Shown here: positions 3-14,239 of the stretch, piece after piece
Numbering within the stretch: position 1 is the stretch's first letter
Layout: the number at the start of each line of letters is the position of its first letter
Assembly: GCA_902384455.1 (NCBI GenBank)
Contig: CABMCB010000008.1
Span: 1-14,239, forward strand
Direction of reading: 5' to 3'
Origin: an uncultured archaeon
GTDB taxonomy: Archaea > Altiarchaeota > Altiarchaeia > IMC4 > SCGC-AAA252-I15
DNA: 14,239 nucleotides
The notes under the pieces: model-generated
What the model saw: the letters and a program-made list of their open reading frames with translations, nothing else
Told to the model about the DNA's origin: nothing
Databases searched by the model: none
Position numbers and translations under genes: made by a program

Positions 3-380
3 AGGAGCGTGCTTGCCGTAAAGATTAACGACGGTAGCGGGGAGTTGTCGGATGCGGGCAAAATAAACATCGCCGACGGGCGGTGGCATCACATTGTTTT
101 TGTGCGGGATAGGGCGGGCAGGGAAGTAAGGGGTTATGTTGACGGCGTTTTGGACGTGAGGTTTTCGGATTCTAAGGGGGACGTTTCGGATACTTCAAGG
201 CGGCTGGTTATAGGGAATTCCAATCCGCTTCAGGACGGCTCTTTCGTGGGCAGGATTTTCGGCGTAAAGACTTATTCCCGAGCGTTGTCTATTGTTGATG
301 TTCAAGGTCTGTATGCTTCGAATTTGGATGCCGTAAATTCAATTCCTGAACCGGTTGGTCCGGCGGAGGTGGGGGCATGA
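3..380 (+). CDS. LamG / concanavalin A-like lectin-glucanase domain protein, C-terminal part (5'-truncated by the window)
   Basis: The frame is open from base 3 (AGG AGC GTG CTT...) to TGA at 378-380. The translation has the LamG-type motifs DGRWHHIVFVRD, YVDGVL, LVIG and G-x-I-x-x-V-x-x-YSRALS. It starts mid-domain, so GTG at 9 is probably not the true start. Confidence 0.85.
   Translation, partial: RSVLAVKINDGSGELSDAGKINIADGRWHHIVFVRDRAGREVRGYVDGVLDVRFSDSKGDVSDTSRRLVIGNSNPLQDGSFVGRIFGVKTYSRALSIVDVQGLYASNLDAVNSIPEPVGPAEVGA
365..371 (+). promoter_or_regulatory. Shine-Dalgarno site (GGAGGTG) for the giant CDS; ATGA start/stop overlap at 377-380
   Basis: GGAGGTG lies 5 nt upstream of ATG 377, and that ATG overlaps the TGA of the upstream gene, which indicates translational coupling. 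Confidence 0.8.
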
Positions 381-3300
381 GGAAGGCGGTTCTCTTAGTT
401 TTGGCGCTTTTTGTGGCGTCCGCGCTTATTCCTGCGGTTTCGGCGTCAGACGCATTCACCGCTTACCGCTCAAATACGGGAACGAACACTCTCGCTTCGC
501 CTAAAATTCGGTTCTGGAATTCTACGACCAGCAGCTGGGGCTCAGAGGTCGAGCTGGCGGCAACTGTTTCCGGCTCAAACGTGCAGTTTGCGATAATAAA
601 ATCTTCGCCGGTGTCGTCTAAGCTTGTTCTTGTGACAGAGCAGGCAGACGGCACCATCGACGGATACGTCTGCATGGCAAACTGCACGGTCGCGACTTCA
701 TGGACTGCGGCCGCCATAGGAGCAGTATGGTCTGGGGGCGGTGCTCAAGACCAGAGGCGTTTTGACGTCGAGTTTGAACGTAAAACAGGGACTGCGGTCG
801 TTGTTTACGGCATTGTAAGCACAAATGCCGCGCAGGATTTGGCGTATATGGTGCTGCCTGAGAACGGAACCACTTTCACCGGAGTCCCAGAGCAATACAT
901 AAACGACGCAGGGCATAACAACGACATCCAGTACGAATGGGTCCGAATGGACGCCAACCCCCTAAACTCAAGCCAGGAACTCATTGTCACAGGATACGAC
1001 GTAAACGACCACGACATAAACGCATGGGTTTGGAACGGCGCAGCATGGGGCAACGCACAGTCGATTACAGACGCAGCTACCTCCACAGGAGACTACGAGG
1101 CACTCGCGGTAAAGTACACGACCGACGGAACACAGGGAATGGTCATGGGCGGAGACGGCGGCAGCGGAAGCGTAGCCACATACTTCTGGACCGGAGCAAC
1201 ATGGACTAATTCCCCAGACTTCGACGTAGATTCAGGCGACGGAAACGACGTCCAATGGATAAACCTGAAAGCAGACCCAGCATCAAACACCAAACTCCAG
1301 GCGGTACTCATAGACAGCGGAAGCGACCTACACACAGCATACTACGACGGCACCTACTGGAATCTAATAAGCAACATAGACGCAGGAGTAGACGTAAACA
1401 CACGGCGACCAGGAGACGTAGAATGGGAACCAACCGGCTCCGTAGGATGGCTCGTCTGGGACACAGACACCACAGGAACCACACAAAGCACAAGATACTG
1501 CAACCCACAATGCGGAGGAGCAACAACACTAATATCAACATACGCAGGAAGAGGCCGATATACGACTTTATACCGGAATCCGACTTCTTCTGATGCTGTG
1601 AGGGTTTTGGGTGAGAGGGTAAACGACAACACAGTCACAGGGTCATTCTACAGAAACGATACTGCGTGGACGAACTACGGCGACAACGCCATATCAACAG
1701 ACATAACATCGACGACATGGGAGTCCTATTCCATCTCTTTCAGGCGCGATTGGAGGCAGCCGAGTTTGCAGTTCGTAGACATCACTCCCGCAAGCGGCAT
1801 AACAAACACCACCACCAACTGGGTCTACGTGAACGTCACATCCAGCGAAGAACTGCAAAAGGCCTACCTGGAGTGGAACGGAGTCAACACGACAATGTAC
1901 GGCGCAAGCCTCAACTGGTATTATAATATGTCTGGTTTGGGCAATGGTTCGTACAGTTATAAGGTTTACGGGGAGGATATTGCGGGTTTCTGGAATGTGA
2001 CTGGAACAAATACTATAATTATACTTGACCAGCAGGCTCCGACGTACACTAATGTGGTGGAGTTGTTGTACGGGGCAGCAAGCACGGAAGTCCACAGAAA
2101 CGAAACCCTTAATTTGAGTGCGGCATGGGCTGACAACTTCAAGTTGGTTTACGCGTGGTTGGAGACTAACGAGAGCGGTAGTTGGGCGAACAAGTCGTCG
2201 TATCTTTCGCCTATGGCAATATCTGGCATAAGCAACATCAGCAATTTCATGTGGAGCAACAGCACGTTTTTGCCAGGCAGGTTCATCAGCTGGCGCATCA
2301 ACGCCAACGACACAGGAGCCAACGTGAACAGAACTCCGATATACAATTTCACTGTTTGGGGTTGGGCGAACACGTCCACGGTGCTGTGGGCTGGCACAGT
2401 CCTGAACCGCAACCCAGTCAACGTATCCTGTAAAGTGTTGGATTCGGTGTCTGGCGCGGGATTAAGCAATTACGTGGTCAGCGTGTACAATGGTTCTGCG
2501 CTTATTGCGTCGGGCTCAACGGACGCGCAGGGCTGGTTCAACACCACCTATACTCCCGTCTATCAAGGCGCCTCAAACATATTCTGCAACGTAACAGACA
2601 ACGCCTCGCAGTTCTACAACAAAACAGGCAACTCGTTTGTTGCGCTTCAAATCAACGAAAGCTACAAAGTAAACGTCACAGTATTCGGGCAAGACAATGC
2701 GGTATTCAACAACGCGACCGTAACTTTCACCAACGCAGGCGGCTACACAGTTAGGGAAGGAAACGGAAGCGTCACAGCATACCTCATTCCCAACGCCACA
2801 TACGACATAGCAATAAGAGCAGTCACAACCACGTCCGGCATACTGTACGCGCGGATGTTCACTTTCAACGCCACCAGCGAAGGCATATACATGCCTGCGC
2901 AAGTCGTCGAAAACTACGCGGGCAACCTGCTTTCAGGCATCCAAAACATAACCCCCGTATTCGCCCTAAACGACACAGGCATAGCCTACAACAGAAGCAG
3001 AATCACGCTAGTCAAAGACGGCGTACTCATCACCCGGATAATGCGATGTGCAAGCTGGAACTACTCCTCCGGCCTTTGCGTAGGAAACAACTGGGAGGCC
3101 AACGTTACTTCGGATTACGGGATGGAGTCGAACTCAACTCACGTCTGGTTCAACGTGACATCAATGCAGGCGTACGCAGGCGCAGCACGCACACCCGCGC
3201 CAAACCTCACCCAAATAAAAGTCTACGACCTCAAAGGATACTCCAACACGCACACCGACGGAATACTAATAGACTCCGGATTAAACAAGACGTTCACCCT

Positions 3301-6300
3301 AAACGGCGGAAAACAATACCGCTTCGAATTCTACGTCAACAACACCGGAGACACCAACTGGATAATCGACACAAGCGACATCGTACACTTCAACGGCACA
3401 AACAACACATGGGCCGTCAACTATACCAACGACGTATGGTACAACGACAGCTCCCTCATATACACCGGCGGATCAGGGCTAAACGGCGGAAACGTAACAT
3501 GGAACACCACACTTGACGGGTCGGTTCCGGCATACAGCACGGCAGTCTTCTACGTAGTCATCAACATAAGCGGAACCGCAAACTACAGCGTGACGTTTTT
3601 GGCCAACGACACGTCGTCAGTCAACGGAAGCACGCAAGACGCAAGCTGGCTTAGGGTAAGCCAGGAACCAGTCAACCCGCTGTACTCTAACGTGGTGCAG
3701 CTTTTGAACGGGGCGGCGGCGACAATACTGCATCGCAACGAGACGATGAACCTATCGTCCAACTGGCGCGACGACATGAACATGTCCGCGGCAATGCTTG
3801 AGACAAACGAGTCCGGACTGTGGGTAAACAAAACATCATACGGCTCGCCGATGGCATTAACCGGATACAACAACATAAGCAGCTTCCTGTGGGCAAACAG
3901 CACTTTCGTGCCTGGCCGGTCTATAGGCTGGAGAATCAACGCCAACGACACAGAAGGAAACGCAAACAGCACCCCCATAGATTCGTTCACCATATGGGGC
4001 TGGGCCAACACGTCCACGGCGCTAAACGTCTCAAGCGTGCTAGCGCACTACCCCGTCAGCGTCTACTGCCGAGTGTTTGACACCCAAGACGGCACTGGAC
4101 TATCCGACTACGTAGTCAACGTATCCAACGGCTCCACAATATTCTCCTCAGGAGCAACAAACGCCAACGGATGGTACAACGTGACATACGTTCCCCCAGT
4201 AAACGGCACAACCACAATATCCTGCCTCATAAACGACAACACCAGCCAATTCTACAACGCAATATCCAACTCCTCCAAACAACTAGAAGTAAACGCAACA
4301 TACATCACCAACCTGACCGCATACCTCTCAGGCACCACCATCTCAACCAACACCACAATAACATTCATCAACGACGCAAACCAAAACGTAAGCCAAGAAA
4401 ACGGCAGCCTACAAACATACCTCAAAGCAAACTTCCTATACGAAATAGACACACGCTCAGTAACCACAAACTCAGGAATCCAATACGCAAACATATACAA
4501 ATACAACGTCACAGCAGACCACTACATAACCACCCAACTAATCGAAACATACGCCGGCACACTACCCCAAACAATACAAAACTTCTCCGCCATACTCGCC
4601 ATAAACGACACAGGACTAACATACAACACAACAAAAATAGTACTCGCCAAAAACGGGCTAACAATAACCCGAATACTACAATGCCCAACATGGAACTACT
4701 CCTCCAGTCTATGCCTAAACAACAACTGGATAATAAACGCACCCACAACACTCAACGCAGAAGAAAACACAACCCACATATGGTTCAACACAACCAACAT
4801 ACAAGCATACACACTCGGCGAAGGAAAACCAATACCAAACATAACCAACATACGCATGTACGACCTCACAGGCCTAACCAACTACCAAACAGGCGGACTA
4901 CTACAAGACGAAGGACTAAACAAAACATTCGGCCTATACTCCAACACAATATACCGCTTCGAATTCTACCTAAACAACACAGGAGACACAAACTGGACAA
5001 TAGACACAGCAGACCTCATATACTACAGCGGCCTAAACGCGTCGTGGCCCATAAACTACTCCGGCCAAGTCTGGTACAACGACACAGTAAACACGCATAC
5101 CACCGGTTCAGGAAGCGGAAACGTCACGTGGAACACCACACTGGGCGGCACAGTGCAACCAGCAGGACTACCCACATTCTACTTCGTAGTCAACATAACT
5201 TCCACTGGCGCATACCCCGTAGTATTCTTCGCAAACAACAGCGAAACAAACTCAGGAAGCACAGACGCAAGCAGACTATCAGTCACACAACGGCCATCGC
5301 CGTCCGCCCCGAACATGGTGGTCGCATACACATCCAGCACCGGAACAAGCGGAACAAGCTCGCCTAAAATAAAGTTCAGAAACGACACCGACGCCACAAT
5401 ATTCGACCCAGAAATAGAACTGCCGACCGCCGGCTCACCAGTCAGATACGTAATCATAAAATACTCGCCCGTATCCGGAAAAATGGTCCTGATATCAGAA
5501 AGCGACGACGGCTGGCTGGACGCATACGTCTGCCTTGCCAACTGCCGGCAAACAAGCTCATGGACAGTCACAAACAACATAGGTAGGGTATGGACTACTG
5601 CGGCAGCCGAAAGGAGGTTTGATTTTGAGTTTGAGCCCGCAACAGGCGACTTGGTGCTTGTGTACGGCGTAATAGACTTGGACACAACCCACGACATAGC
5701 ATACAAGGTGCTTCCTGACGCGTCAACCAGCTTCCCGGGAATAACCGAGCAATACATAGACGACACGGGACACGCTTCAAACATCCAGTACTCTTGGATT
5801 AGGATGGACCGCAAACCTCTAAACAACACTGAAGAACTGGTTCTGGTAGGATACGACTCAACCGACAGCAACGTGAACGCCTGGGTGTGGAGCGGAAGCG
5901 CATGGGGGAACAACCAGGAAATAACCGCCGACGCATCATCAACAGGCGGATACGAAGCAATCGCCGTAAGGTACGCCGCAGACGCAAGCAAAGCGATGGT
6001 TATAGCAGGCGACGGAGCAAGCGGAAACGTAGCCACATACTATTGGGCGTCAAACGCATGGACAAACTCCGCAGACTTCGACATAGACGGCACAGCAAAC
6101 GACGCCCAATGGATAAACCTGAAAGCCGACCCCGCAACAGACGACATGCAAGCAGTCATAGTTGACTCAGCAAGCGCCCTCCACACGTCCTACTGGGACG
6201 GAAGCGCATGGACAGTGACAAGCCAAGTAGACACGGGATTGGACGTAAACGCAGAAAGAGACGCAGACTTCGAGTGGGAGCCAACCGGCTCAGTAGGTAT

Positions 6301-8893
6301 GCTAGTATGGGACACAGACACCACAGGAACAACGCTAAGCCTAAGAAGATGCGCGCCCCAATGCACCGGCACAATAATCACAAATTCAACCTACGCCGCA
6401 AGAGGACGATACATAACAATGTACTCAAACCCCGACCCCACAAGCCCAATCAAAATCATAGGCGCACGCCTAAACAGCAACGTCGACTTAGGGCTATTCC
6501 GCTGGAACACCACAGAATTCACAAACTACGGCGACGCAGTAATGACAGCAGACGCAACATCCGACGTATATGAAGGATACTCAGTCGCATTCCCCCGCGA
6601 CAAACGCCCACCAGCAATATCGTACGTAAACATCACACCTGAAAACAACACACTACTCACAGACCAAAACTGGGTCTACATAAACATCACATCAAACGAA
6701 GAACTCGCAACAGCACGCATAGAATGGGCAGGCACAAACGGAACAATGAGCGGCACAAACACCAACTGGCACATAAACAAAACAAGCATCGCCGACGGAA
6801 CATACACATACAAAGTATTCGGAAACGACACCGCAGGATACTGGAACTCCACAGACAGAAGAACAGTAACAATAGACACAACCGGCCCAACATGGACCAA
6901 CAACAGAACCTCCCCGCCATCCGGCTCAACATACACCCCCGGACAAAACTACACATTCAACGTCACATGGACAGACGCAACCACCGCAGTAGACAAAGTA
7001 TACATAGAAGAAAACTTCACAGGAACATTCCAAAACATAACCCTAACATCCAGCGGAAACAACGTCTACAACTACACATTCCAACACCTAAAAGCAGGCA
7101 CATACTCATGGCGGATGTACGCAAACGACACAGCCCACCACTGGACCCAAACACCCTTCTTCACATACACAGTCGCCAAAGCCCAAGCAACCATAAACCT
7201 AACACTAAACGGCGCAGCAAACAACATCAGCATCTGCCCCACACAAATGGCCAACATATCCGCAGGCCTAATAGCGCCACCATCAGGCTACCTAGAACTA
7301 TACAACGACTCAGTCCTAATCAACAACGGCACCTCACTACCACTCGAAAACAGGACAAACTACACCGACGTAGGACGACACAACATCACAGCATACTACC
7401 CCGAAACAGAAAACTACACAAACACGTCAACAACCTTCTGGGTATTCTCCCTAGACTGCCAAGCACCCACATACTCAAACGTAATGCAACTACTATACGG
7501 CATCCAAAGCAACATCGTACACCGCAACGAAACAATGAACCTGTCCGCCAACTGGGCCGACAACTTCAACCTATCCTACGCCACCCTAGAAACAAACGAA
7601 TCAACAGGCGGCCAATGGATGAACCAGACAGGTTACGGCTCCCCGATGGCCATAACCGGAACAAGCGCTCAAAGCAGCTTCATCTGGACCGTCGACTCCG
7701 CCCTCCCACCCGGAACCGTAGTAGGATGGAGACTCCACACAAACGACACAGCAGGCAACGTAAACACCACAACACCAATCCAAACATTCACCATCTGGGG
7801 CTACAGCAACATAACATGGACAACGCCAGTAGGCCTAAACTACACTCCCGGAACGATAATACCCCTAGTCTGCCAAGTGGCAGACACCGATTACGAAGAC
7901 CTGATAAACGGCTACGCTGTAAACTTCTACGTCAAAAACACGACCACAGTAACATTCCTAGGCACAAACACCAGCAACACAACAGGACACGCCCACTTCA
8001 ACTGGAACACAACAAACTGGAGCTCAGGCCTATACAACGTCTCCTGCAACATAACCGGCGACTCAAACGTCTACTACAACTCAACTGCCACAAACCAAGG
8101 ATGGGCCAACATAACGCTCACAAGCGAAGCCATAACCGGCGTAATAACCGGACACATGAACCTGCCCCCTGAACTATCACTAACGAACGTAGGCCAAAAC
8201 AAAACATTCACAGTCAACGTCACAGTCACATGCGCAGGCGACTGCGGCTCAGTCACCGGGGCGCTACGCTACAACGTAAGCTCAATAGAACCAGACACCA
8301 ACGTCCTAACAAGCTCAACTACCCCAATGTACATACTCACAGAAACAAATCCCCAAAGCTGCTCAAACAACCCACTAGTCGACACAAACTGCACATTAAC
8401 ATGGACAGTAAACGCAACAGGCGACTTACTATCCACATGGAACCTCGACACCAAACTAACCGCAACAAAAGCCGCACAAAACGAAACCAACAACAGCGCA
8501 ATAAAAATAAACATAGTGCTAATCCTCAACCTAAGCACACCCAGCATAGACTGGGGCATACTCGACCCGCAAACAACGTGCGCCCCAGCCCCAACAAACC
8601 TCACCGTAACAGTAGACCCAAACAGCAACGACGCAGACGCACTATGGATACGCGGCGACAACCTGACAACAACGCCAACCAACGGATACGTAATCCCAAT
8701 ATACAACGTAACATGGTGCAAATGCGGAAACTGCGGACTAGGAACCAGAACAAACGAAACATACGAAGAACTACTTAGGCCAGCACCCGCAGGAGTCAGC
8801 ACAAACGTAACATTCTGGATAGACGTACCGGCAGTGCCGTACGACCACTACACAAGCCAAATATACATAATGGCAAACACAACAAGCCCCTAA
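377..8893 (+). CDS. Giant (2838 aa) secreted surface glycoprotein / adhesin-like protein: signal peptide, two beta-propellers, many Ig-like domains, C-terminal pilin/WxL-like domain
   Basis: Uninterrupted 8.5-kb ORF with a strong SD site and a Sec-type signal peptide (MRKAVLLVLALFVASALIPAVSA). Internal repeats give the order SP-A-B-(C-D-E-F)x2-A-B-G-H-C-D'-I-J. It is rich in beta-strand residues (Thr/Asn/Trp/Tyr) and N-x-S/T sequons and has no C-terminal TM helix. The ORF itself is certain; the function is inferred. Confidence 0.9.
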   Translation: MRKAVLLVLALFVASALIPAVSASDAFTAYRSNTGTNTLASPKIRFWNSTTSSWGSEVELAATVSGSNVQFAIIKSSPVSSKLVLVTEQADGTIDGYVCMANCTVATSWTAAAIGAVWSGGGAQDQRRFDVEFERKTGTAVVVYGIVSTNAAQDLAYMVLPENGTTFTGVPEQYINDAGHNNDIQYEWVRMDANPLNSSQELIVTGYDVNDHDINAWVWNGAAWGNAQSITDAATSTGDYEALAVKYTTDGTQGMVMGGDGGSGSVATYFWTGATWTNSPDFDVDSGDGNDVQWINLKADPASNTKLQAVLIDSGSDLHTAYYDGTYWNLISNIDAGVDVNTRRPGDVEWEPTGSVGWLVWDTDTTGTTQSTRYCNPQCGGATTLISTYAGRGRYTTLYRNPTSSDAVRVLGERVNDNTVTGSFYRNDTAWTNYGDNAISTDITSTTWESYSISFRRDWRQPSLQFVDITPASGITNTTTNWVYVNVTSSEELQKAYLEWNGVNTTMYGASLNWYYNMSGLGNGSYSYKVYGEDIAGFWNVTGTNTIIILDQQAPTYTNVVELLYGAASTEVHRNETLNLSAAWADNFKLVYAWLETNESGSWANKSSYLSPMAISGISNISNFMWSNSTFLPGRFISWRINANDTGANVNRTPIYNFTVWGWANTSTVLWAGTVLNRNPVNVSCKVLDSVSGAGLSNYVVSVYNGSALIASGSTDAQGWFNTTYTPVYQGASNIFCNVTDNASQFYNKTGNSFVALQINESYKVNVTVFGQDNAVFNNATVTFTNAGGYTVREGNGSVTAYLIPNATYDIAIRAVTTTSGILYARMFTFNATSEGIYMPAQVVENYAGNLLSGIQNITPVFALNDTGIAYNRSRITLVKDGVLITRIMRCASWNYSSGLCVGNNWEANVTSDYGMESNSTHVWFNVTSMQAYAGAARTPAPNLTQIKVYDLKGYSNTHTDGILIDSGLNKTFTLNGGKQYRFEFYVNNTGDTNWIIDTSDIVHFNGTNNTWAVNYTNDVWYNDSSLIYTGGSGLNGGNVTWNTTLDGSVPAYSTAVFYVVINISGTANYSVTFLANDTSSVNGSTQDASWLRVSQEPVNPLYSNVVQLLNGAAATILHRNETMNLSSNWRDDMNMSAAMLETNESGLWVNKTSYGSPMALTGYNNISSFLWANSTFVPGRSIGWRINANDTEGNANSTPIDSFTIWGWANTSTALNVSSVLAHYPVSVYCRVFDTQDGTGLSDYVVNVSNGSTIFSSGATNANGWYNVTYVPPVNGTTTISCLINDNTSQFYNAISNSSKQLEVNATYITNLTAYLSGTTISTNTTITFINDANQNVSQENGSLQTYLKANFLYEIDTRSVTTNSGIQYANIYKYNVTADHYITTQLIETYAGTLPQTIQNFSAILAINDTGLTYNTTKIVLAKNGLTITRILQCPTWNYSSSLCLNNNWIINAPTTLNAEENTTHIWFNTTNIQAYTLGEGKPIPNITNIRMYDLTGLTNYQTGGLLQDEGLNKTFGLYSNTIYRFEFYLNNTGDTNWTIDTADLIYYSGLNASWPINYSGQVWYNDTVNTHTTGSGSGNVTWNTTLGGTVQPAGLPTFYFVVNITSTGAYPVVFFANNSETNSGSTDASRLSVTQRPSPSAPNMVVAYTSSTGTSGTSSPKIKFRNDTDATIFDPEIELPTAGSPVRYVIIKYSPVSGKMVLISESDDGWLDAYVCLANCRQTSSWTVTNNIGRVWTTAAAERRFDFEFEPATGDLVLVYGVIDLDTTHDIAYKVLPDASTSFPGITEQYIDDTGHASNIQYSWIRMDRKPLNNTEELVLVGYDSTDSNVNAWVWSGSAWGNNQEITADASSTGGYEAIAVRYAADASKAMVIAGDGASGNVATYYWASNAWTNSADFDIDGTANDAQWINLKADPATDDMQAVIVDSASALHTSYWDGSAWTVTSQVDTGLDVNAERDADFEWEPTGSVGMLVWDTDTTGTTLSLRRCAPQCTGTIITNSTYAARGRYITMYSNPDPTSPIKIIGARLNSNVDLGLFRWNTTEFTNYGDAVMTADATSDVYEGYSVAFPRDKRPPAISYVNITPENNTLLTDQNWVYINITSNEELATARIEWAGTNGTMSGTNTNWHINKTSIADGTYTYKVFGNDTAGYWNSTDRRTVTIDTTGPTWTNNRTSPPSGSTYTPGQNYTFNVTWTDATTAVDKVYIEENFTGTFQNITLTSSGNNVYNYTFQHLKAGTYSWRMYANDTAHHWTQTPFFTYTVAKAQATINLTLNGAANNISICPTQMANISAGLIAPPSGYLELYNDSVLINNGTSLPLENRTNYTDVGRHNITAYYPETENYTNTSTTFWVFSLDCQAPTYSNVMQLLYGIQSNIVHRNETMNLSANWADNFNLSYATLETNESTGGQWMNQTGYGSPMAITGTSAQSSFIWTVDSALPPGTVVGWRLHTNDTAGNVNTTTPIQTFTIWGYSNITWTTPVGLNYTPGTIIPLVCQVADTDYEDLINGYAVNFYVKNTTTVTFLGTNTSNTTGHAHFNWNTTNWSSGLYNVSCNITGDSNVYYNSTATNQGWANITLTSEAITGVITGHMNLPPELSLTNVGQNKTFTVNVTVTCAGDCGSVTGALRYNVSSIEPDTNVLTSSTTPMYILTETNPQSCSNNPLVDTNCTLTWTVNATGDLLSTWNLDTKLTATKAAQNETNNSAIKINIVLILNLSTPSIDWGILDPQTTCAPAPTNLTVTVDPNSNDADALWIRGDNLTTTPTNGYVIPIYNVTWCKCGNCGLGTRTNETYEELLRPAPAGVSTNVTFWIDVPAVPYDHYTSQIYIMANTTSP
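452..2029 (+). repeat. Propeller A plus Ig-like B, copy 1 (homologous to 5315-6877)
   Basis: Shares SPKI, YVC-x-ANC, RRFD-x-EFE, EQYI, QWINLKADPA, EWEPTGSVG-x-LVWDTDTTGTT, RGRY, TNYGD and NWVY-x-N-x-TS-x-EEL with copy 2. Short exact DNA matches remain, e.g. gggacacagacaccacaggaac. Confidence 0.95.
2030..3665 (+). repeat. ~546-aa four-domain module (C-D-E-F), copy 1 of a tandem pair
   Basis: The motifs HRNET-x-NLS, WRINANDT, WGWANTST, C-x-x-WNYSS-x-LC-x-x-NNW, GLNKTF, YRFEFY-x-NNTGDTNW and NVTWNTTL all recur about 1638 nt downstream. Confidence 0.95.
3666..5290 (+). repeat. ~546-aa four-domain module (C-D-E-F), copy 2
   Basis: Colinear protein homology with 2030-3665. Confidence 0.95.
5315..6877 (+). 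repeat. Propeller A plus Ig-like B, copy 2
   Basis: Colinear protein homology with 452-2029. Confidence 0.95.
7454..8120 (+). repeat. Third copy of Ig-like domain C plus a diverged domain D
   Basis: QAPTYSNVMQLLYG...HRNETMNLSANWADNF...LETNES...YGSPMAITG...FTIWG matches copies 1 and 2. It is followed by C-x-V-x-D...Y-x-V...SCNIT...YYN. Confidence 0.9.
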
Positions 8894-8922
8894 AAACAAG
8901 GCAAAAAAAGGCGATATAAACC

Positions 8923-9864
8923 ATGGAAAACCAATTAAAACGTATGGACAAAAGGGCCAAGACGACAACAATAACCCTCCTAATACTCGCAACTCTAACG
9001 TCAACCGCCCACGCAGCAACCCTAACCCTCGGAAGCATCACAGACATATCCCGCCTAACAATACCCGCCGGAGGAGACGGCACATTCCAAGCCTCATTCT
9101 TCACCCTAGAATCAACCCCCGTAGAAATAACATTCAACGTAGAAGCACCCCCAGAAGTCATGGTAAGAATCGACCCACAAAACATCACAATAACATCAAA
9201 CTCAACCGACTGGCCAAACGAAGGAGGCTCATGGTACGTCCTATCCGACACCGGAACATACATACGAACATACCCCGTAAAAGTCAGAGTCAGAATACCC
9301 TCAATACTAACCCAAAACGGATACAAAATAAAACTCACCGCAATAGCAAAAAACGCGCGAAGCGCATCCGCACCAGGAATACAACAAAAAGTAGCCCAAT
9401 CACGCGAAATAACATTCTACGCCTACACACCCGGACCCATAGAAGGATTCCCAACAACAAACGACCAAAACACCCAAAACTCAGGCACAACCGGAACAGA
9501 AACCGGCCCATACATACCAGCCTCAGACAGAAGCACAGACCAAGGAGGCCAAGCAAACAGCCCCTCAGGAAACTACCCCAACAACCCCGCAAACCCCATA
9601 AACACCGGAGACACAAACAACCAGAATACAGGAAACAACAATCCCACAGGCAACAACCAACAAAACACCCAAACAACAACGAAACAACAACAAAACAATC
9701 AGCAGACACACACAACCACAAAAACACCCACAGCAGACATAATAGACGCCACAAAACCCCCAAAAACAACCAGCAGCCCACTAATCACAATCGCCGCAAT
9801 AGCCATTTTAGCGGCAATCGCGCTCGTAATAGCATACGTCATACACGCTAAATGGAAAAAATAA
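8923..9864 (+). CDS. Membrane-anchored exported protein: Ig/chaperone-like domain, N/Q/T/P-rich linker, C-terminal TM helix (alternative start ATG 8944)
   Basis: It has a signal peptide (KRAKTTTITLLILATLTSTAHA), a ~140-aa beta-rich domain, a low-complexity linker at ~9450-9780, a hydrophobic segment LITIAAIAILAAIALVIAYVI and a basic tail HAKWKK. Codon style matches the neighbouring genes. Confidence 0.88.
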   Translation: MENQLKRMDKRAKTTTITLLILATLTSTAHAATLTLGSITDISRLTIPAGGDGTFQASFFTLESTPVEITFNVEAPPEVMVRIDPQNITITSNSTDWPNEGGSWYVLSDTGTYIRTYPVKVRVRIPSILTQNGYKIKLTAIAKNARSASAPGIQQKVAQSREITFYAYTPGPIEGFPTTNDQNTQNSGTTGTETGPYIPASDRSTDQGGQANSPSGNYPNNPANPINTGDTNNQNTGNNNPTGNNQQNTQTTTKQQQNNQQTHTTTKTPTADIIDATKPPKTTSSPLITIAAIAILAAIALVIAYVIHAKWKK

Positions 9865-12800
9865 GACTGATAGCAGCCGCACTACTAATCATAGCAAGCG
9901 CCAGCTACGCATCAGCCGTCGCCCCAGAAATAAACCACGTAACACACTACCCAGAATTCACAATACTCGGAAAAAACGTCACAATAAACGCCACAGTCAC
10001 AGACGCAGACGGCAACCTACTTCTGATAACAGTAAGAATCACAGACCCATACGGAACAGCCAACAACTACATGATGAACCCCGCCAACGGCACAACAACA
10101 CCCTACGGCGGACTATACACCTACGCATACGCCCCAAACATGAGCGGAATATACGACTACCAGATAATCGCAATGGACGCCCTCGGCGAATCAACAAGCA
10201 CCAACGCATCCTCCTTCTACTCCGTAGACCTGGGCGGATTCAGAATAGACAACCTAACAATAAACGTAGAAGTAAAAGCAAGCTGCTGCGGACTAATAAG
10301 CTACTTCTACGCACCCGACTACATAATCCGAAACCAAACAGTCGTATTCCTAATGTTCTTCAGCAACTGCGGCAACATACGACTCAGCCACTTCCACGAC
10401 ATATACGTCACAGACAACGAAGGCAACGTACTAGCAAACCTAACCGGCTCAGGATACCCCTCAGACCCAGTAGAACCACTAGAAGAAACATTCTTCTTCA
10501 CATTCTGGGCTACAGCAGGCTCACCACCCGGAAACTACACAGTAATAGGATACACAGACTACGACAGCATAGTATCCTTCCAAGAAAACCAAACATTCAC
10601 CCACTACACAAACCTCACAGACAACCCCTCATACACCTGCTTCCAAAACTCCACAAACGTCATCTGCACAAACATAACCCAAAACTCATGCGAAAAACAA
10701 TACGGCCCAACAATACACATAACAACAGACCAAGCCACCAGCACACCCCTACCCAACCAAAACACAAGCACCCAAGCATACAACGGCACATTCGACATAG
10801 ATGGCGCAATACACAACGTATACACCTGCATAGCAAACACATGCAGCGAATACTGCCAAGCATGCATAAGCAAAGACGAAAACGTCACACCCGACGAATG
10901 CGGCAGAAAAGGAGAAGACCTAACAACAGTCCCATACCGCATAAACACCATAGAAACAAACGGACTAGACGCAAGCTTCCAACGCTACGAAGAAACATGC
11001 GACTTCACAAAAACCACATACAACTGCACATACACCCCCGACAGCGGCTTACTATGCAGCCAAACAGTATACTGCTCAGGCCGAGCAATACGGACTAAAG
11101 TAGTCCAGCTTATAGAGTCGTTCGGTCAGACAGAAAAATTCATGCCAAGCCCAGACATACTCCTCATACGGGAAGTGCCCTCAAGAATCAACCAGAAGTT
11201 TACAGAATGCGACCCGTCCGACCCATGGAGCAACTGCTCATCCGGCAGAGTCAAACTGTTCGCCTACAACCGGGGGCAAAGAGACGTCCTAAACCTGCAC
11301 GTAGACGACCAAAGCGAAAGCACATTTTGCTACCCCGGAAACGGCGACTGCTACCCGCTCGACTACAAATGCGTGAACAGCCCCAACTACGACTGCTTCA
11401 AAGGCAAAGCAGGAATCAACACCACAAACCTAATACAATACAACCGCAACGTCACAGCAGGAGAAACCCTCAACTTCAGCATACAATCCAAAGAAGGATA
11501 CCTGCAAAAAAACGCAATACTACAGATGTTGCCGCCCTCCGCAGCAACATGTCAAAACATAACTCCCACAAGCACACGCCAAGAAACAGACGGCAGCAAA
11601 ACATACAACTTCACATACACAGTACCCTCCGCCGGAAACTACATATACCGCCTCACATCCACGGACAAATTCGGAGAAACACTATACGGAGAACCAAACC
11701 TCCTCACCACCGGCGCATCAAACAACCCCGCAACAAGCCCGCAGATAACAAACACCACACTCTACAACTACCTCTTCTTCAACCAGAGCATAGCAATCGA
11801 AGTGAACACATACGACGCCCAAGACGACATCTACAACGTACAAGCCGAAATACTCACCCCAAACAACATAACCCGAATACCAATGTACAACGGCAGCTTC
11901 ACGCTAGCAATGACCAGAGGACTAACCCCGCTCACTACCGTCCTATCAAACCTTTTCGCCTCGCCCCAAGCCTACTCACAAAGCTACACGGTGCCGACAC
12001 ACAGCGAATACTACGTCCGAGTAAGAGTTGAAGACGCCACCGGAAACGTCGTATACACTCCGTTCTACTTCATAAACAACACGCTCTACATAACCGAAAA
12101 CCAAACAAGCCGAATACAATTCCAAACACACCAGGCAGTCAAAGTAGGCGACTACCAGATGTTCGAATACGACATAATACCCTTAAACAACCAAACCCTC
12201 TACACCCAAATAAACGCAACAACCCCCAACTACTACCTCTTCAACGCCACAGCCACATACTACCTGAGCATCCTCTCATTCAACCAGACCGAAGCAAACA
12301 CAACACTCAACATCAGCCAATACTTCAACATACTCCCCGCAGACCAAGGATACATGAGCAAAGAAGACGACCCCACATACAACATGCCAGAAAGCAAAAA
12401 AATGCGGCTATCAAACGTAACCGCAGTACAATACACATTCGACCTCATACCCGAAACACCCGAAGAAGAACGAACCCACCCCGGAAACGAAACAATCAAC
12501 GCCACACTAACAATAACCTCCCTAGCCGGCGACATAAACCAAACAAACCCATGGCAACTACACATGTCCGTACCCCAAGTCTGGAACATAACAACATGCG
12601 CCCCACCCCCAACATACACATGCGAAATAATCACACGAACACAAATAGAACTAAACTCAACAAACCCCCTACCAACAGGACAAAACACCACAATAAACCT
12701 CACACTACAACCAACAGGCGGCCTCTACACCCTGCCCACAAACAAAAGCTTAGGGACAATCCTTAGCAGAACATACCACCAGGAAGACATTCCGGGGCTG

Positions 12801-14239
12801 TTCACCGTAAGCCGCCAGTACGTAAGGCGAAACGTAACCCAAAACGTAACCCAAAACATAAGCGTACCCCAAAACATAAGCATACCCCAACCCCTACCAA
12901 CTCAAGGGCCCAACATACTCACAATAAGGGAAACACCCCACTTCCTAAACCAAAACGAAAACTGCGACCCCCAAAACCCCTGGCAAACATGCTACTACAC
13001 AGACGTAAGGCTAATACTATACAGCAGAGGAATAGAAAACGCAACCCGCACAACCACATACGACTTTGCCAAACCAGAAAACTGCGCGCCAACAAACACA
13101 TGCAGGCCGACGGCACTGCGCTGCAGCAACACCACCGAGTACCTCTGCGACATATGCCCGCTAAACATAACGCTACTAACAATAAACACGACGACTACGG
13201 GCGGACAGGCGACAGTGAACGCCACACTAACGCCTTCAACGGAAGTTAAAAACGCAGTGCTGTCAGTATACTCAGACTCAACCGGCTGGACAGCGTACAG
13301 CCCAAATTCAACGCAAGAAGCAGGAAATCAACGCCTGTACACATATAGTTTCCCCCTCCCCGCGGGCTCAGACGTGCTGTTGCGCCTTGACGCAACCGAC
13401 ACATACGGCACAACAATCTCATACTCTCCCGACCCAATAAGAAAATCCAACAGCACACCAGCAGCAACACCCCCCACAATCAAAAACCAAATAATAGCGT
13501 ACACGCAGGAAAACAGGACCGCAATTTTCAGAGTGAACGTAAGCGACACAGCAGACGACGTAACCTCAGTAACACTCGACCTAATGAGGCCGGAAAGCAA
13601 TCTTGCAGACTCATACGTGCTGACGGAAATCGAAAACTACAGCCGCCCATTCATACTAAGGCTGTTTGCCAGCCAAGACGAGCGCACATACCAACGCAGC
13701 ATAGAACTACCAGTAACAGGACTATACATATACCGGTACAAAGTCCAAGACAACAACGGCAGCATAACATACTCCGACTGGACGACGCTATCCACATACC
13801 ACGTGGCATCATCAGACGAACTCTACTGCATAAGATTCACCCTCCTTAAGGACCTCCCGCCACAAGACTTCGTCATACTAACATACGACCTCGCCCCAAC
13901 AAACAACACCCAATACTACACGCAAAAACCCGAATCACCAGCGTACGTGTACAACGCAACAAGCCTGTTCTACCCGCCAAACGCGATAAGAGCAAACTTT
14001 ACTGAAGCTGGCGGAACATGGTTTTTGACGTACAACCAAAGCGCGTTCCGCGCAGAAGAAGACTACGCCCCATTCAACCCACCGATAAACCGCTACGCAT
14101 ACCTCAGAAACATATCCGCATTCCACTACTACCTAGACACAGACCCAACAAACACAAGCATAACATACTCCGACTGGACGACGCTATCCACATACCACGT
14201 GGCATCATCAGACGAACTCTACTGCATAAGATTCACCCT
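9852..14239 (+). CDS. Large secreted Cys-rich multi-Ig-domain surface protein, >1460 aa, 3'-truncated (absent from the supplied ORF track)
   Basis: Translated by hand from ATG 9852: MEKIRLIAAALLIIASASYASA|VAPEINHVTHYPEFTILGKNVTINATVTDADGNL... I found no stop codon before the window end (...SDELYCIRFT). It has a signal peptide, overlaps the previous gene by 13 nt, uses the same A/C-ending codon bias, and carries many sequons and an internal repeat. Confidence 0.9.
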   Translation, partial: MEKIRLIAAALLIIASASYASAVAPEINHVTHYPEFTILGKNVTINATVTDADGNLLLITVRITDPYGTANNYMMNPANGTTTPYGGLYTYAYAPNMSGIYDYQIIAMDALGESTSTNASSFYSVDLGGFRIDNLTINVEVKASCCGLISYFYAPDYIIRNQTVVFLMFFSNCGNIRLSHFHDIYVTDNEGNVLANLTGSGYPSDPVEPLEETFFFTFWATAGSPPGNYTVIGYTDYDSIVSFQENQTFTHYTNLTDNPSYTCFQNSTNVICTNITQNSCEKQYGPTIHITTDQATSTPLPNQNTSTQAYNGTFDIDGAIHNVYTCIANTCSEYCQACISKDENVTPDECGRKGEDLTTVPYRINTIETNGLDASFQRYEETCDFTKTTYNCTYTPDSGLLCSQTVYCSGRAIRTKVVQLIESFGQTEKFMPSPDILLIREVPSRINQKFTECDPSDPWSNCSSGRVKLFAYNRGQRDVLNLHVDDQSESTFCYPGNGDCYPLDYKCVNSPNYDCFKGKAGINTTNLIQYNRNVTAGETLNFSIQSKEGYLQKNAILQMLPPSAATCQNITPTSTRQETDGSKTYNFTYTVPSAGNYIYRLTSTDKFGETLYGEPNLLTTGASNNPATSPQITNTTLYNYLFFNQSIAIEVNTYDAQDDIYNVQAEILTPNNITRIPMYNGSFTLAMTRGLTPLTTVLSNLFASPQAYSQSYTVPTHSEYYVRVRVEDATGNVVYTPFYFINNTLYITENQTSRIQFQTHQAVKVGDYQMFEYDIIPLNNQTLYTQINATTPNYYLFNATATYYLSILSFNQTEANTTLNISQYFNILPADQGYMSKEDDPTYNMPESKKMRLSNVTAVQYTFDLIPETPEEERTHPGNETINATLTITSLAGDINQTNPWQLHMSVPQVWNITTCAPPPTYTCEIITRTQIELNSTNPLPTGQNTTINLTLQPTGGLYTLPTNKSLGTILSRTYHQEDIPGLFTVSRQYVRRNVTQNVTQNISVPQNISIPQPLPTQGPNILTIRETPHFLNQNENCDPQNPWQTCYYTDVRLILYSRGIENATRTTTYDFAKPENCAPTNTCRPTALRCSNTTEYLCDICPLNITLLTINTTTTGGQATVNATLTPSTEVKNAVLSVYSDSTGWTAYSPNSTQEAGNQRLYTYSFPLPAGSDVLLRLDATDTYGTTISYSPDPIRKSNSTPAATPPTIKNQIIAYTQENRTAIFRVNVSDTADDVTSVTLDLMRPESNLADSYVLTEIENYSRPFILRLFASQDERTYQRSIELPVTGLYIYRYKVQDNNGSITYSDWTTLSTYHVASSDELYCIRFTLLKDLPPQDFVILTYDLAPTNNTQYYTQKPESPAYVYNATSLFYPPNAIRANFTEAGGTWFLTYNQSAFRAEEDYAPFNPPINRYAYLRNISAFHYYLDTDPTNTSITYSDWTTLSTYHVASSDELYCIRFT
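11151..14156 (+). repeat. Diverged ~586-aa internal repeat in the fourth gene (copy 1 from 11151; copy 2 from 12909, incomplete)
   Basis: PDILLIREVPSRINQKFTECDPSDPWSNC...VKLFAYNRG matches PNILTIRETPHFLNQNENCDPQNPWQTC...VRLILYSRG at an offset of 1758 nt. Later paired motifs are RLTSTDKFG/RLDATDTYG, PATSPQI/AATPPTI, LFAS/LFAS, VEDATG/VQDNNG, YDIIP/YDLAP and FNAT/YNAT. Confidence 0.85.
12831..12890 (+). repeat. Short in-frame tandem repeats: 2 x 12 bp (AACGTAACCCAA), then 2 x 18 bp (AACATAAGCRTACCCCAA)
   Basis: Read directly from the sequence. It encodes NVTQ-NVTQ-NISVPQ-NISIPQ. Confidence 0.9.
13761..14239 (+). repeat. Exact 83-bp direct repeat: 13761-13843 equals 14157-14239 (second copy runs to the window end)
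   Basis: The sequence agcataacatactccgactgg...taagattcaccct is identical in both places. The offset is 396 nt, which is in frame. Confidence 0.97.

Follow-up and report, generated by a model that had tools for sequence, protein, structure and literature searches.

What holds a giant protein on the surface of an archaeal cell when the protein has no anchor of its own? How archaea hold such proteins, and how archaea of the DPANN type attach to hosts and surfaces, is largely unknown. A contig from an uncultured archaeon of the Altiarchaeota (assembly GCA_902384455.1, contig CABMCB010000008.1) gives the question a concrete form, that of a docking domain and its candidate partner encoded side by side. 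The window, by which we mean the whole stretch of DNA analyzed, is this complete contig of 14,239 nt. It is filled by four open reading frames (ORFs), all on the + strand, and three of these, here called P0001, P0002 and P0003, make up what we describe as a surface-display cassette. P0001 is a giant secreted protein that ends in a domain of about 125 residues, the C-terminal docking domain (CTD); P0002, the next gene product, is a membrane-tethered protein that we call the partner. Gene linkage and fold class together give strong support to the conclusion that the CTD and its tethered neighbor are a functional pair. On how the pair works we are far less sure. The account we favor, with about as much doubt as belief, is that the partner binds a truncated CTD by β-strand complementation. 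What leads us to it is the linkage of the two genes in three clades, the terminal position of the CTD, the fold modeled for the partner, the apparent truncation of the CTD and a conserved, membrane-anchored third gene. The genes of the cassette are as follows.

377..8893, + strand: gene for P0001, the giant secreted surface protein, 2838 aa (ORF and translation)
8923..9864, + strand: gene for P0002, the membrane-tethered partner, 313 aa (ORF, translation, AlphaFold2 and homologues; an alternative start at Met8 is possible)
9852..14237, + strand: gene for P0003, the third cassette gene, at least 1462 aa, cut at the contig end (ORF, translation and phmmer against relatives)

P0001 and P0002 are separated by a gap of 29 nt, and P0002 and P0003 overlap by 13 nt.

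Two genes that travel together

The strongest evidence comes from gene order. Among the relatives within the Altiarchaeota, eight loci have DNA downstream of the CTD gene (two further CTD genes lie at contig ends, outside this count), and in 6 of the 8 a partner homologue follows. The order in those six is always CTD gene, P0002 homologue (phmmer 1e-23 to 1e-32), P0003 homologue (1e-96 to 1e-233). Of the 61 genomes of the phylum, 8 contain the CTD and 7 the P0002 family, namely this genome and members of one other family, in which 7 of the 22 genomes have the CTD and 6 of the 22 the P0002 family. All seven strong P0002-family matches in the 61 genomes lie directly 3′ of a CTD gene.

A second set of 13 loci was drawn from a subfamily alignment of CTD proteins of 450–600 aa; 11 of the records are titled Nanohaloarchaea or Nanohalarchaeota. 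Here the partner is the next gene in 12 of 13, the ORF of the next gene in the thirteenth being shortened by the start-codon rule. The twelve partners are proteins of 212–253 aa in which a signal peptide is followed by a sandwich, an acidic linker and, at the C-terminus, a transmembrane (TM) helix; hhalign shows their homology to the P0002 family (probability 99.2, E 9.3e-20, over 154 columns). A third subfamily alignment led to 80 metagenome loci. Of the 68 that extend 650 nt or more downstream, 59 show a match to the partner profile on the same strand, starting within 400 nt of the CTD gene. In a first listing of the metagenome loci the next gene mostly starts between −34 and +20 nt relative to the end of the CTD gene. 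All these counts include kin and are not tallies of independent loci. What varies widely from locus to locus is the payload that precedes the CTD, while the gene order persists. The pair recurs in at least three archaeal groups, on payloads of about 140 to more than 5000 residues.

One contig in the wider collection, L031, comes from a record titled as a Colwellia polaris metagenome-assembled genome (MAG). Its cassette is 45% identical to Nanohaloarchaea cassettes and has the same neighbors, and the contig has likely been mis-binned into a bacterial MAG.

A docking domain without a name

The features at the two ends of P0001 that matter here are these.

377..445, + strand: signal peptide of P0001, aa 1–23, ...AVSA/S (sequence; cleavage site by eye)
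8102..8497, + strand: penultimate Cys-containing β-sandwich, aa 2576–2707 (alignment of relatives; conserved ...C..G.CG...RYN...C...W.VNATG... block 5′ of the CTD)
8498..8542, + strand: conserved inter-domain strand/linker AIKINIVLILNLSTP, aa 2708–2722 (alignment of relatives; I2711 99% conserved)
8516..8890, + strand: CTD, aa 2714–2838 (phmmer family, AlphaFold2, fold matches, residue couplings and terminal position)
8876..8884, + strand: conserved terminal sequon N2834-T-T, 3 residues before the stop (CTD family tails)

The original prediction, made from the letters of the DNA, had P0001 as a protein of 2838 residues with a signal peptide and no anchor, ending in a distinct domain of some 125 residues. 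The translation agrees: base 8516 corresponds to codon 2714, and the strings quoted in the prediction are all present. The N-terminus is a Sec-type signal (MRKAVLLVLALFVASALIPAVSA/S), and the translation shows neither a hydrophobic C-terminal stretch nor a PGF motif, nor a lipobox Cys following the signal.

The terminal domain proved to belong to a family. A phmmer search of 1.84 billion representative proteins brought in 99 proteins at E<=1e-3, 36 of them also at E<=1e-10. With the window's own protein set aside, the CTD profile matches 96 of the 98 phmmer hits, the remaining 2 being repeat-type matches. In 95 of the 96 no more than 8 residues separate the end of the CTD from the end of the protein; the one that departs from this, P0041, carries an incomplete domain and then an unrelated tail. 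CTD-bearing proteins span 137–5297 aa in length, those below about 230 aa being fragments that begin inside the preceding domain. A signal-peptide-like N-terminus is found in 40, of which two (143 and 172 aa) are fragments and the other 38 measure 288–5297 aa. None of the 98 representatives is a CTD on its own with a signal peptide, the short entries being fragments. The smallest conserved unit is larger than the CTD itself, since the Cys-containing sandwich and the CTD form the family's conserved two-domain C-terminal module.

Conservation within the domain was gauged on 81 sequences paired with their partners. The most constant columns are an IDFG near the start (F 98%, G 93%), N2777, a [YF]W[IL]D.P in which W2814 and the P are each conserved at 95%, and a 'P....Y.G' (P 95%, Y 100%, G 91%). 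The first and last of these correspond to motifs that the original prediction had named for pilins and WxL domains, and they are indeed conserved columns of the family. Of 94 complete representative CTDs, 82 carry an N-x-S/T sequon among their last 7 residues; when all unique CTD tails are taken, including a clade in which the terminal sequon is replaced by ...GV..G..P, the figure is 112 of 191. The last strand of the CTD therefore probably ends in an N-glycan, to judge from these tails. Searches of Pfam, NCBIfam and PDB sequences, by phmmer and by profiles, gave no significant match for either the CTD or the partner. The CTD is a real protein family that has no name.

In this genome, searched in its entirety (2.41 Mb in 103 contigs), there is one copy of the CTD and one of the partner. 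A search for paralogues found nothing beyond weak Ig-like (immunoglobulin-like) matches (E >= 2.5e-4) and no small pilin paralogue. In a relative, the locus L047 has an ORF of 209 aa (L047:9087-9713) with a CTD-like C-terminal tail, recognized by eye (...YLRYWLD.....PSGVYNTTYLIRAVE...), and after it a second partner-family gene (L047:9743-10459, profile E 9.7e-5). On sequence, the ORF is a possible stand-alone subunit in that relative.

A tethered partner with a PapD-like fold

P0002 was predicted to be a single β-sandwich followed by a flexible linker and a C-terminal TM helix, and the translation and the AlphaFold2 model bear this out. The model has a helix at residues 2–26 (the signal), a β-sandwich at 33–170 (predicted local distance difference test, pLDDT, 77–96), disorder at 177–287 and a final helix at 286–312. 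Its parts are placed on the contig as follows.

9016..9432, + strand: partner ectodomain, aa 32–170, modeled as a complete PapD/MSP/ASH/WxLIP-type β-sandwich (AlphaFold2, Foldseek, VIA)
9319..9426, + strand: last two strands of the partner, 133–144 and 158–168, with a low-confidence tip, 145–157; candidate donor hairpin (AlphaFold2, conservation)
9451..9777, + strand: Thr/Asn/Gln-rich disordered tether, aa 177–285, about 110 aa (AlphaFold2, pLDDT 27–34)
9778..9858, + strand: C-terminal transmembrane helix, aa 286–312, then KWKK (translation and AlphaFold2)

At the level of the model, the ectodomain is a complete PapD-like fold. Foldseek returns 134 matches at E<=1e-3, among them the chaperones FimC (1.8e-5), Caf1M (1.1e-4), SafB (2e-4) and PapD (2.1e-4), and also MSP and ASH domains. 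Structural comparison by VIA places HYDIN-like and ASH domains at Z 11.6–11.9 and the chaperones of chaperone–usher systems at Z 9–10.6. The WxLIP structure 9i1y_A is fourth in rank, tied with ASH/HYDIN domains, at Z 11.3 with a root-mean-square deviation (rmsd) of 2.6 over 112 aligned residues. Neighbors in the ESM Atlas are NEW3/COG1470-type sandwiches and one WxLIP cluster. The hairpin formed by the last two strands falls to pLDDT 60–70 in blocks 141–160 and below 50 at 153–155, and it carries a family-conserved Q-x-R and x-F-x-F pattern.

A word-based search for partner homologues returned only the protein itself, an alignment-based one 7 clusters, and a sequence-profile search of the PDB 0 matches at E<=10. 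The PapD families (PF00345 + PF02753) have no Pfam match in the partner, which has a single domain and not the two-domain L shape, and DUF916 (PF06030) and DUF3324 have no profile match in P0002 or in the 12 Nanohaloarchaea partners. The likeness to PapD, EcpB and DUF916 proteins anticipated for the partner holds for the fold and fails for Pfam membership.

Mutual information between the CTD and the partner was calculated over the 81 pairs. Clade-marker columns dominate it, and the pair M2832–E162, which joins the last strand of the CTD to that of the partner and ranked third, is not counted as evidence.

A third gene on the membrane

The third gene was absent from the original prediction. P0003 has a signal peptide, and its full-length relatives have one or two TM helices at their end. 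The Nanohaloarchaea counterpart is 540–737 aa long with two terminal TM helices; that of the metagenome loci is about 410–430 aa and present in 39 of the 46 loci with room for it. A profile of the metagenome third gene matches the third genes of the Altiarchaeota and Nanohaloarchaea at E 1e-5 to 1e-10. The product has NEW3/HYDIN-like Ig domains near the membrane. Being both membrane-anchored and conserved, it is a better candidate for the final anchor than P0002. Its mature N-terminus, examined as a possible donor strand, differs between groups: an alternating V-x-V-x-V in Nanohaloarchaea, ITGF...VSIKEK in the metagenome clade and, in Altiarchaeota, PP.I..V...P, resembling an ordinary first Ig strand.

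Several loci of one metagenome clade (L045, L074, L083, L092, L061 and L047) have further genes around the cassette. Proteins of about 255–265 aa that start with a MinD/ParA-like GKGGVGKT motif, seen by eye, flank it, and an anchored protein of about 800 aa is encoded upstream. The third gene of this clade has a conserved cytoplasmic tail, ...RRKK.RPKL[IL]RE..EE. Taken together, these sequences hint at a connection with a cytoplasmic ATPase.

Is the docking domain missing a strand?

Strand complementation presupposes an Ig fold that lacks a strand, a point on which the structure of the CTD bears. AlphaFold2, given 36 sequences, models the domain with a pLDDT of 94.6 and a predicted template modeling score of 0.83. 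Foldseek against the PDB gives no match at E<=1e-3; the list is headed by CfaB (3.8e-3), followed by CsuA/B, Fim, Pap, Caf1 and Saf pilins and TasA, with TM-scores of 0.4–0.57. Pilins of this kind and TasA, which the original prediction had named for comparison, are the best Foldseek matches, but every match has E >= 3.8e-3. In the VIA comparison a GH123 N-domain and an ASH/PapD-like domain stand at Z 8.7–8.9.

Indirect evidence comes from where the alignments stop. The CTD and partner models have 18 complete PapD/MSP/ASH/GH123/WxLIP targets in common, and in all 18, as measured by first and last aligned residues only, the CTD alignment ends 11–32 target residues before that of the partner. 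The CTD's own last residues are reached in each case. The targets' end points, CTD against partner, are 1781 and 1798 for 6fvi, 99 and 126 for 1grw, 105 and 134 for 6tqr, 96 and 128 for EcpB, 99 and 128 for CfaA, and 139 and 158 for WxLIP. Alignments to pilins, which themselves lack a strand in the known systems compared below, run to the last listed pilin residues (FimA 159, FimH 279, PapA 163, CsuA/B 152–155). We take these residues to be the true chain C-termini.

Residue couplings point the same way. Mean-field direct coupling analysis (DCA) of 189 unique sequences, with an effective number (Meff) of 159 that leaves couplings noisy below about rank 30, has as its top pair 58–135, which joins strand C to the terminal strand. 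The stretch 109–116 is coupled to strand B (45–114, 44–111, 45–112) and strand D (79–112), and there is almost no coupling between 109–116 and 130–135. As a sanity check, the analysis recovers the A–B pairing (18–47) and Cys36–Cys87. From the alignment ends against complete targets, the pilin alignments and the couplings, we infer that the last CTD strand behaves as strand F with no G after it, and we lean slightly toward a truncated fold, insofar as models and couplings can tell.

How the pair might work

In the account we favor, P0001 would be exported by Sec and arrive outside the cell with no anchor of its own. Its CTD would be a pilin-like Ig domain whose final strand sits in the F position and whose G strand is absent. 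The partner, a PapD-like sandwich held at the membrane by a C-terminal helix at the end of a long flexible tether, would bind the CTD by β-strand complementation, its long flexible last hairpin supplying the missing strand beside the CTD's C-terminal strand. Two outcomes can be imagined. The partner might hold the adhesin, of about 300 kDa, permanently on the cell. Or it might keep the CTD folded until the adhesin is handed over to a third, membrane-embedded protein; the parallel would be ElrE, ElrA and ElrB in WxL pili or, in the pili of bacteria of the candidate phyla radiation (CPR), PamC/D, PamT and PamR. Physical contact, strand insertion and hand-over are putative steps in this scheme. 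We regard the donor-strand mechanism as plausible, with some indirect support.

A number of observations sit uneasily with strand complementation. The partner has one Ig domain, where PapD and WxLIP have two, and its long tether is more suggestive of a stalk than of a chaperone acting at the translocon. Residues K137, R161 and E162, the first two of which might correspond to the conserved Arg/Lys pair of PapD-like chaperones, are invariant in Altiarchaeota, yet less than 80% conserved across all 81 partners. Two of the eight Altiarchaeota loci, L014 and L018, have other genes and no detected partner; none is detected in 9 of the 68 metagenome loci either, although a small ORF with a terminal TM helix can be made out by eye in 6 of those 9. 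The CTD itself is modeled as a compact and very confident monomer. Its pilin matches are weak throughout (Foldseek E >= 3.8e-3, TM-score 0.4–0.57, and VIA Z of about 7, a level that the tool rates as common), and its lowest-rmsd matches are complete sandwiches, namely the GH123 N-domain (rmsd 2.1–2.6 over 99–102 residues) and ASH. The couplings also tie the internal strand 96–102 to the terminal strand (97–133) and to strand A (16–102), from which this strand might fill the G position from within. And the evidence for truncation has its own limits, with alignment ranges that record end points and couplings that grow noisy down the list. On the original prediction's incomplete Ig fold the evidence is divided: alignment ends and DCA suggest that a last strand is absent, and the compact monomer and the coupling of strand 96–102 speak for a domain that is whole.

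Several of these observations are what one would expect if the CTD were complete after all, and were bound surface-to-surface or edge-to-edge by the tethered partner, in the style of cohesin and dockerin, as a non-covalent anchor. A confident, compact monomer, best-rmsd matches that are complete sandwiches, a strand 96–102 that couples to the terminal strand and to strand A, and a tether long enough for a stalk would all follow naturally, and the synteny fits docking of this kind just as well as it fits strand complementation. We nevertheless consider it doubtful. The CTD alignment stops short of the target's last strand in 18 of 18 shared complete-fold targets, and DCA sets the last CTD strand beside strand C. 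A strictly free C-terminus (95/96) is typical of strand-complementation systems, and the PapD-like partner has a flexible last hairpin.

The two proteins might, alternatively, be co-expressed parts of one surface in which the CTD binds something else, be it the third gene product, the S-layer or its glycans, or a host cell, with another role left for the 313-residue protein. Some CTD genes have no partner, and the third gene, with its NEW3/HYDIN-like Ig domains near the membrane, is conserved as well (39 of the 46 metagenome loci with room, in addition to the Altiarchaeota and Nanohaloarchaea); the GKGGVGKT genes that flank the cassette in one clade hint at a larger machine. We think this unlikely. 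In three clades with widely differing payloads the partner gene comes directly after the CTD gene, often with an overlap, all 7 of its strong matches in the phylum adjoin a CTD gene, and its fold class is that of the known strand-donating chaperones.

Least probable is a polymerizing pilus in which the linker strand of one subunit is donated into the CTD of the next, head to tail as in Pam pilins, with the partner as assembly chaperone: its minimal unit would be the two-domain module with the conserved linker strand (I2711 99%), as described for PamA/B (PMC13278184), and there are short members of 288–450 aa with signal-peptide-like N-termini, as well as the 209-residue ORF of L047 with its CTD-like tail (by eye) and the partner-profile gene (E 9.7e-5) that follows, but there is just one CTD gene in this genome, with no small paralogue, the 98 representatives include no free-standing CTD that has a signal peptide, and a homopolymer of 300-kDa subunits is improbable.

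Returning to strand complementation, what stands of the original prediction is the functional pairing of the CTD with its neighbor, for which linkage and fold class speak. The co-occurrence it proposed to look for is there in 6 of 8 Altiarchaeota, 12 of 13 Nanohaloarchaea and 59 of 68 metagenome loci. What finds no support is membership of the WxL, SCPU, DUF916 and PapD sequence families, for which there is no Pfam or PDB profile match, and the idea of a pilus with small pilin-like paralogues in this genome, which has its one CTD gene and no small paralogue. 'Adhesin display cassette' is a better name for the locus than 'pilus'.

The rest of the giant protein and of the contig

Most of P0001 lies upstream of the conserved module, and the protein carries 153 N-x-S/T sequons and 28 Cys. 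It contains duplicated modules of about 540 aa: residues 19–559 resemble 1640–2175 (45–61% identity) and 555–1098 resemble 1101–1640 (about 50%), with a partial third module copy at 2364–2571. These repeats emerged with query windows of 200 aa; blastp of the whole protein against itself gave only the identity match. Pfam finds weak Ig-like matches in P0001, every one below cutoff, and none of the repeat modules could be assigned to a family.

One further gene lies upstream.

3..380, + strand: 3′ end of a LamG-type gene, cut at the contig start (translation; C-terminal LamG/concanavalin-like domain, Pfam Laminin_G_3 E 6.6e-14)

This gene end also has a weak NCBIfam match to TafC, a haloarchaeal fimbrial tip family, at 22.5 bits against a cutoff of 410. 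At the other end of the contig there is a perfect direct repeat of 83 nt, at 13761-13843 and 14157-14239, the second copy of which reaches the exact contig end. Because of this repeat the last 26 residues of P0003 repeat an earlier stretch of the same protein, and the contig probably ends there through an assembly break within a repetitive gene. In composition the + strand shows a strong excess of A and C between about 2.5 kb and the contig end, with the AT skew rising to +0.57 and the GC skew falling to −0.45. The first 2 kb of the P0001 gene, unlike the downstream part, have a GC skew of at least 0.

Comparison with known systems

The known systems closest to the cassette are the WxL (Elr/Csc) pilus clusters of Bacillota and the Pam pili of CPR bacteria. 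In the Elr WxL pilus of Enterococcus, described in a 2026 preprint, ElrE, a WxLIP composed of DUF916, DUF3324 and a TM helix, primes the WxL pilins, ElrA is the large WxL tip adhesin and ElrB the anchored donor (10.64898/2026.10.17.759780). The same account describes the attachment modules of chaperone–usher and WxL proteins as likewise terminal on variable payloads, gives Foldseek values for ElrE similar to those of our partner, and reports the Elr/WxL pilus system as confined to Bacillota (10.64898/2026.10.17.759780). Insertion of a WxLIP hairpin that becomes ordered on binding has been predicted, and the WxL domain has two Trp-x-Leu motifs (PMC10599100).

The cassette resembles these systems in having no usher, in a variable payload that ends in a C-terminal attachment domain without the last Ig strand (as we suppose for the CTD), in an adjacent gene for an Ig-fold protein that has a flexible hairpin and ends in a TM helix, and in a further anchored component. 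Like a WxL domain, the CTD is C-terminal on large adhesins and clustered with a TM-anchored Ig partner; like a WxLIP, the partner has the fold of the first domain, a low-pLDDT hairpin loop at 145–157 and a C-terminal helix at 286–312. In a language-model atlas a WxL cluster is the nearest named cluster to the CTD, at only 0.81, which we treat as a lead only. The differences are equally plain. WxL (PF13731) has no hmmscan match on the CTD at E up to 10, or on 10 alignment members at E up to 1. Where WxL domains have two W-x-L motifs, the CTD family has none and conserves one W (W2814, 95%), in [YF]W[IL]D.P. The partner is one sandwich followed by 110 disordered residues, whereas a WxLIP has DUF916 and DUF3324 in tandem. 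And there is no sortase or LPxTG, there are no small pilins in this genome, and the hosts are archaea without peptidoglycan.

The Pam pili of CPR bacteria, described in a 2026 preprint, have TM-anchored PapD/FimC-like chaperones and a membrane-anchored terminator, PamR (PMC13278184). They share with the cassette a single-membrane cell, a C-terminal TM helix on a PapD/FimC-like protein and the lack of a transenvelope machine; their two-domain subunits end in a truncated Ig domain, with PamR as the membrane-anchored terminator. Pam pilins are small, however, and polymerize through a linker strand, and Pam chaperones have two domains. The pilins are reported to be exclusive to CPR (PMC13278184), and we have compared them with the cassette by description only.

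Chaperone–usher systems (Fim, Pap, Caf1, Csu, CFA/I) offer a CTD-like fold in their pilins and a partner-like fold in the N-domain of their chaperones, and in the cassette, as there, the attachment domain keeps to one place, strictly C-terminal. The cassette differs in having no usher, no periplasm and no N-terminal donor extension, in a partner that is single-domain and tethered, and in the lack of sequence similarity. No usher-like gene for a large β-barrel is present in the window or in the loci viewed, and where chaperone–usher pilins have their N-terminal donor extension, 2700 residues belonging to other domains come before the CTD.

Archaea have strand-donation filaments of their own, in Sulfolobus threads, AbpA bundling pili, cannulae and Tat-fimbriae. 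As described, these too are archaeal, with Ig-like subunits, donated strands and heavy glycosylation; they are chaperone-free homopolymers of small subunits, whereas the cassette has a giant single-copy adhesin and a dedicated tethered partner. In searches of the full texts of papers we found no description of an archaeal counterpart of the anchored-chaperone systems of the WxL or Pam type. By analogy, then, the logic of the cassette would be that of WxL and Pam: a tip adhesin, a tethered chaperone-like protein and a membrane base. The cassette differs in the absence of sequence membership in either, a single-domain partner on a long tether, a genome with no small pilins and an archaeal host.

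What the cassette may mean

More broadly, we suggest, tentatively and with more doubt than conviction, that there is a separate archaeal lineage of usher-free, chaperone-type display by strand complementation, present in Altiarchaeota, Nanohaloarchaea and other DPANN-like groups. It would need as few as three genes, for a tip adhesin of any size with a truncated Ig end, a tethered, single-domain, PapD-like protein that completes it, and a membrane base.

If strand complementation is indeed how the pair works, a mechanism reported in 2026 for monoderm bacteria only (Bacillota or CPR) would extend to archaea, and two unnamed protein families would gain a function. In that case searches with the CTD profile could inventory the proteins that these uncultured lineages display on their surface. 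Together with the WxL and Pam pili, the cassette would make membrane-anchored donor-strand assembly a general solution for single-membrane cells in both domains of life, and it would become a prime candidate for the means by which episymbiotic archaea grip their hosts.

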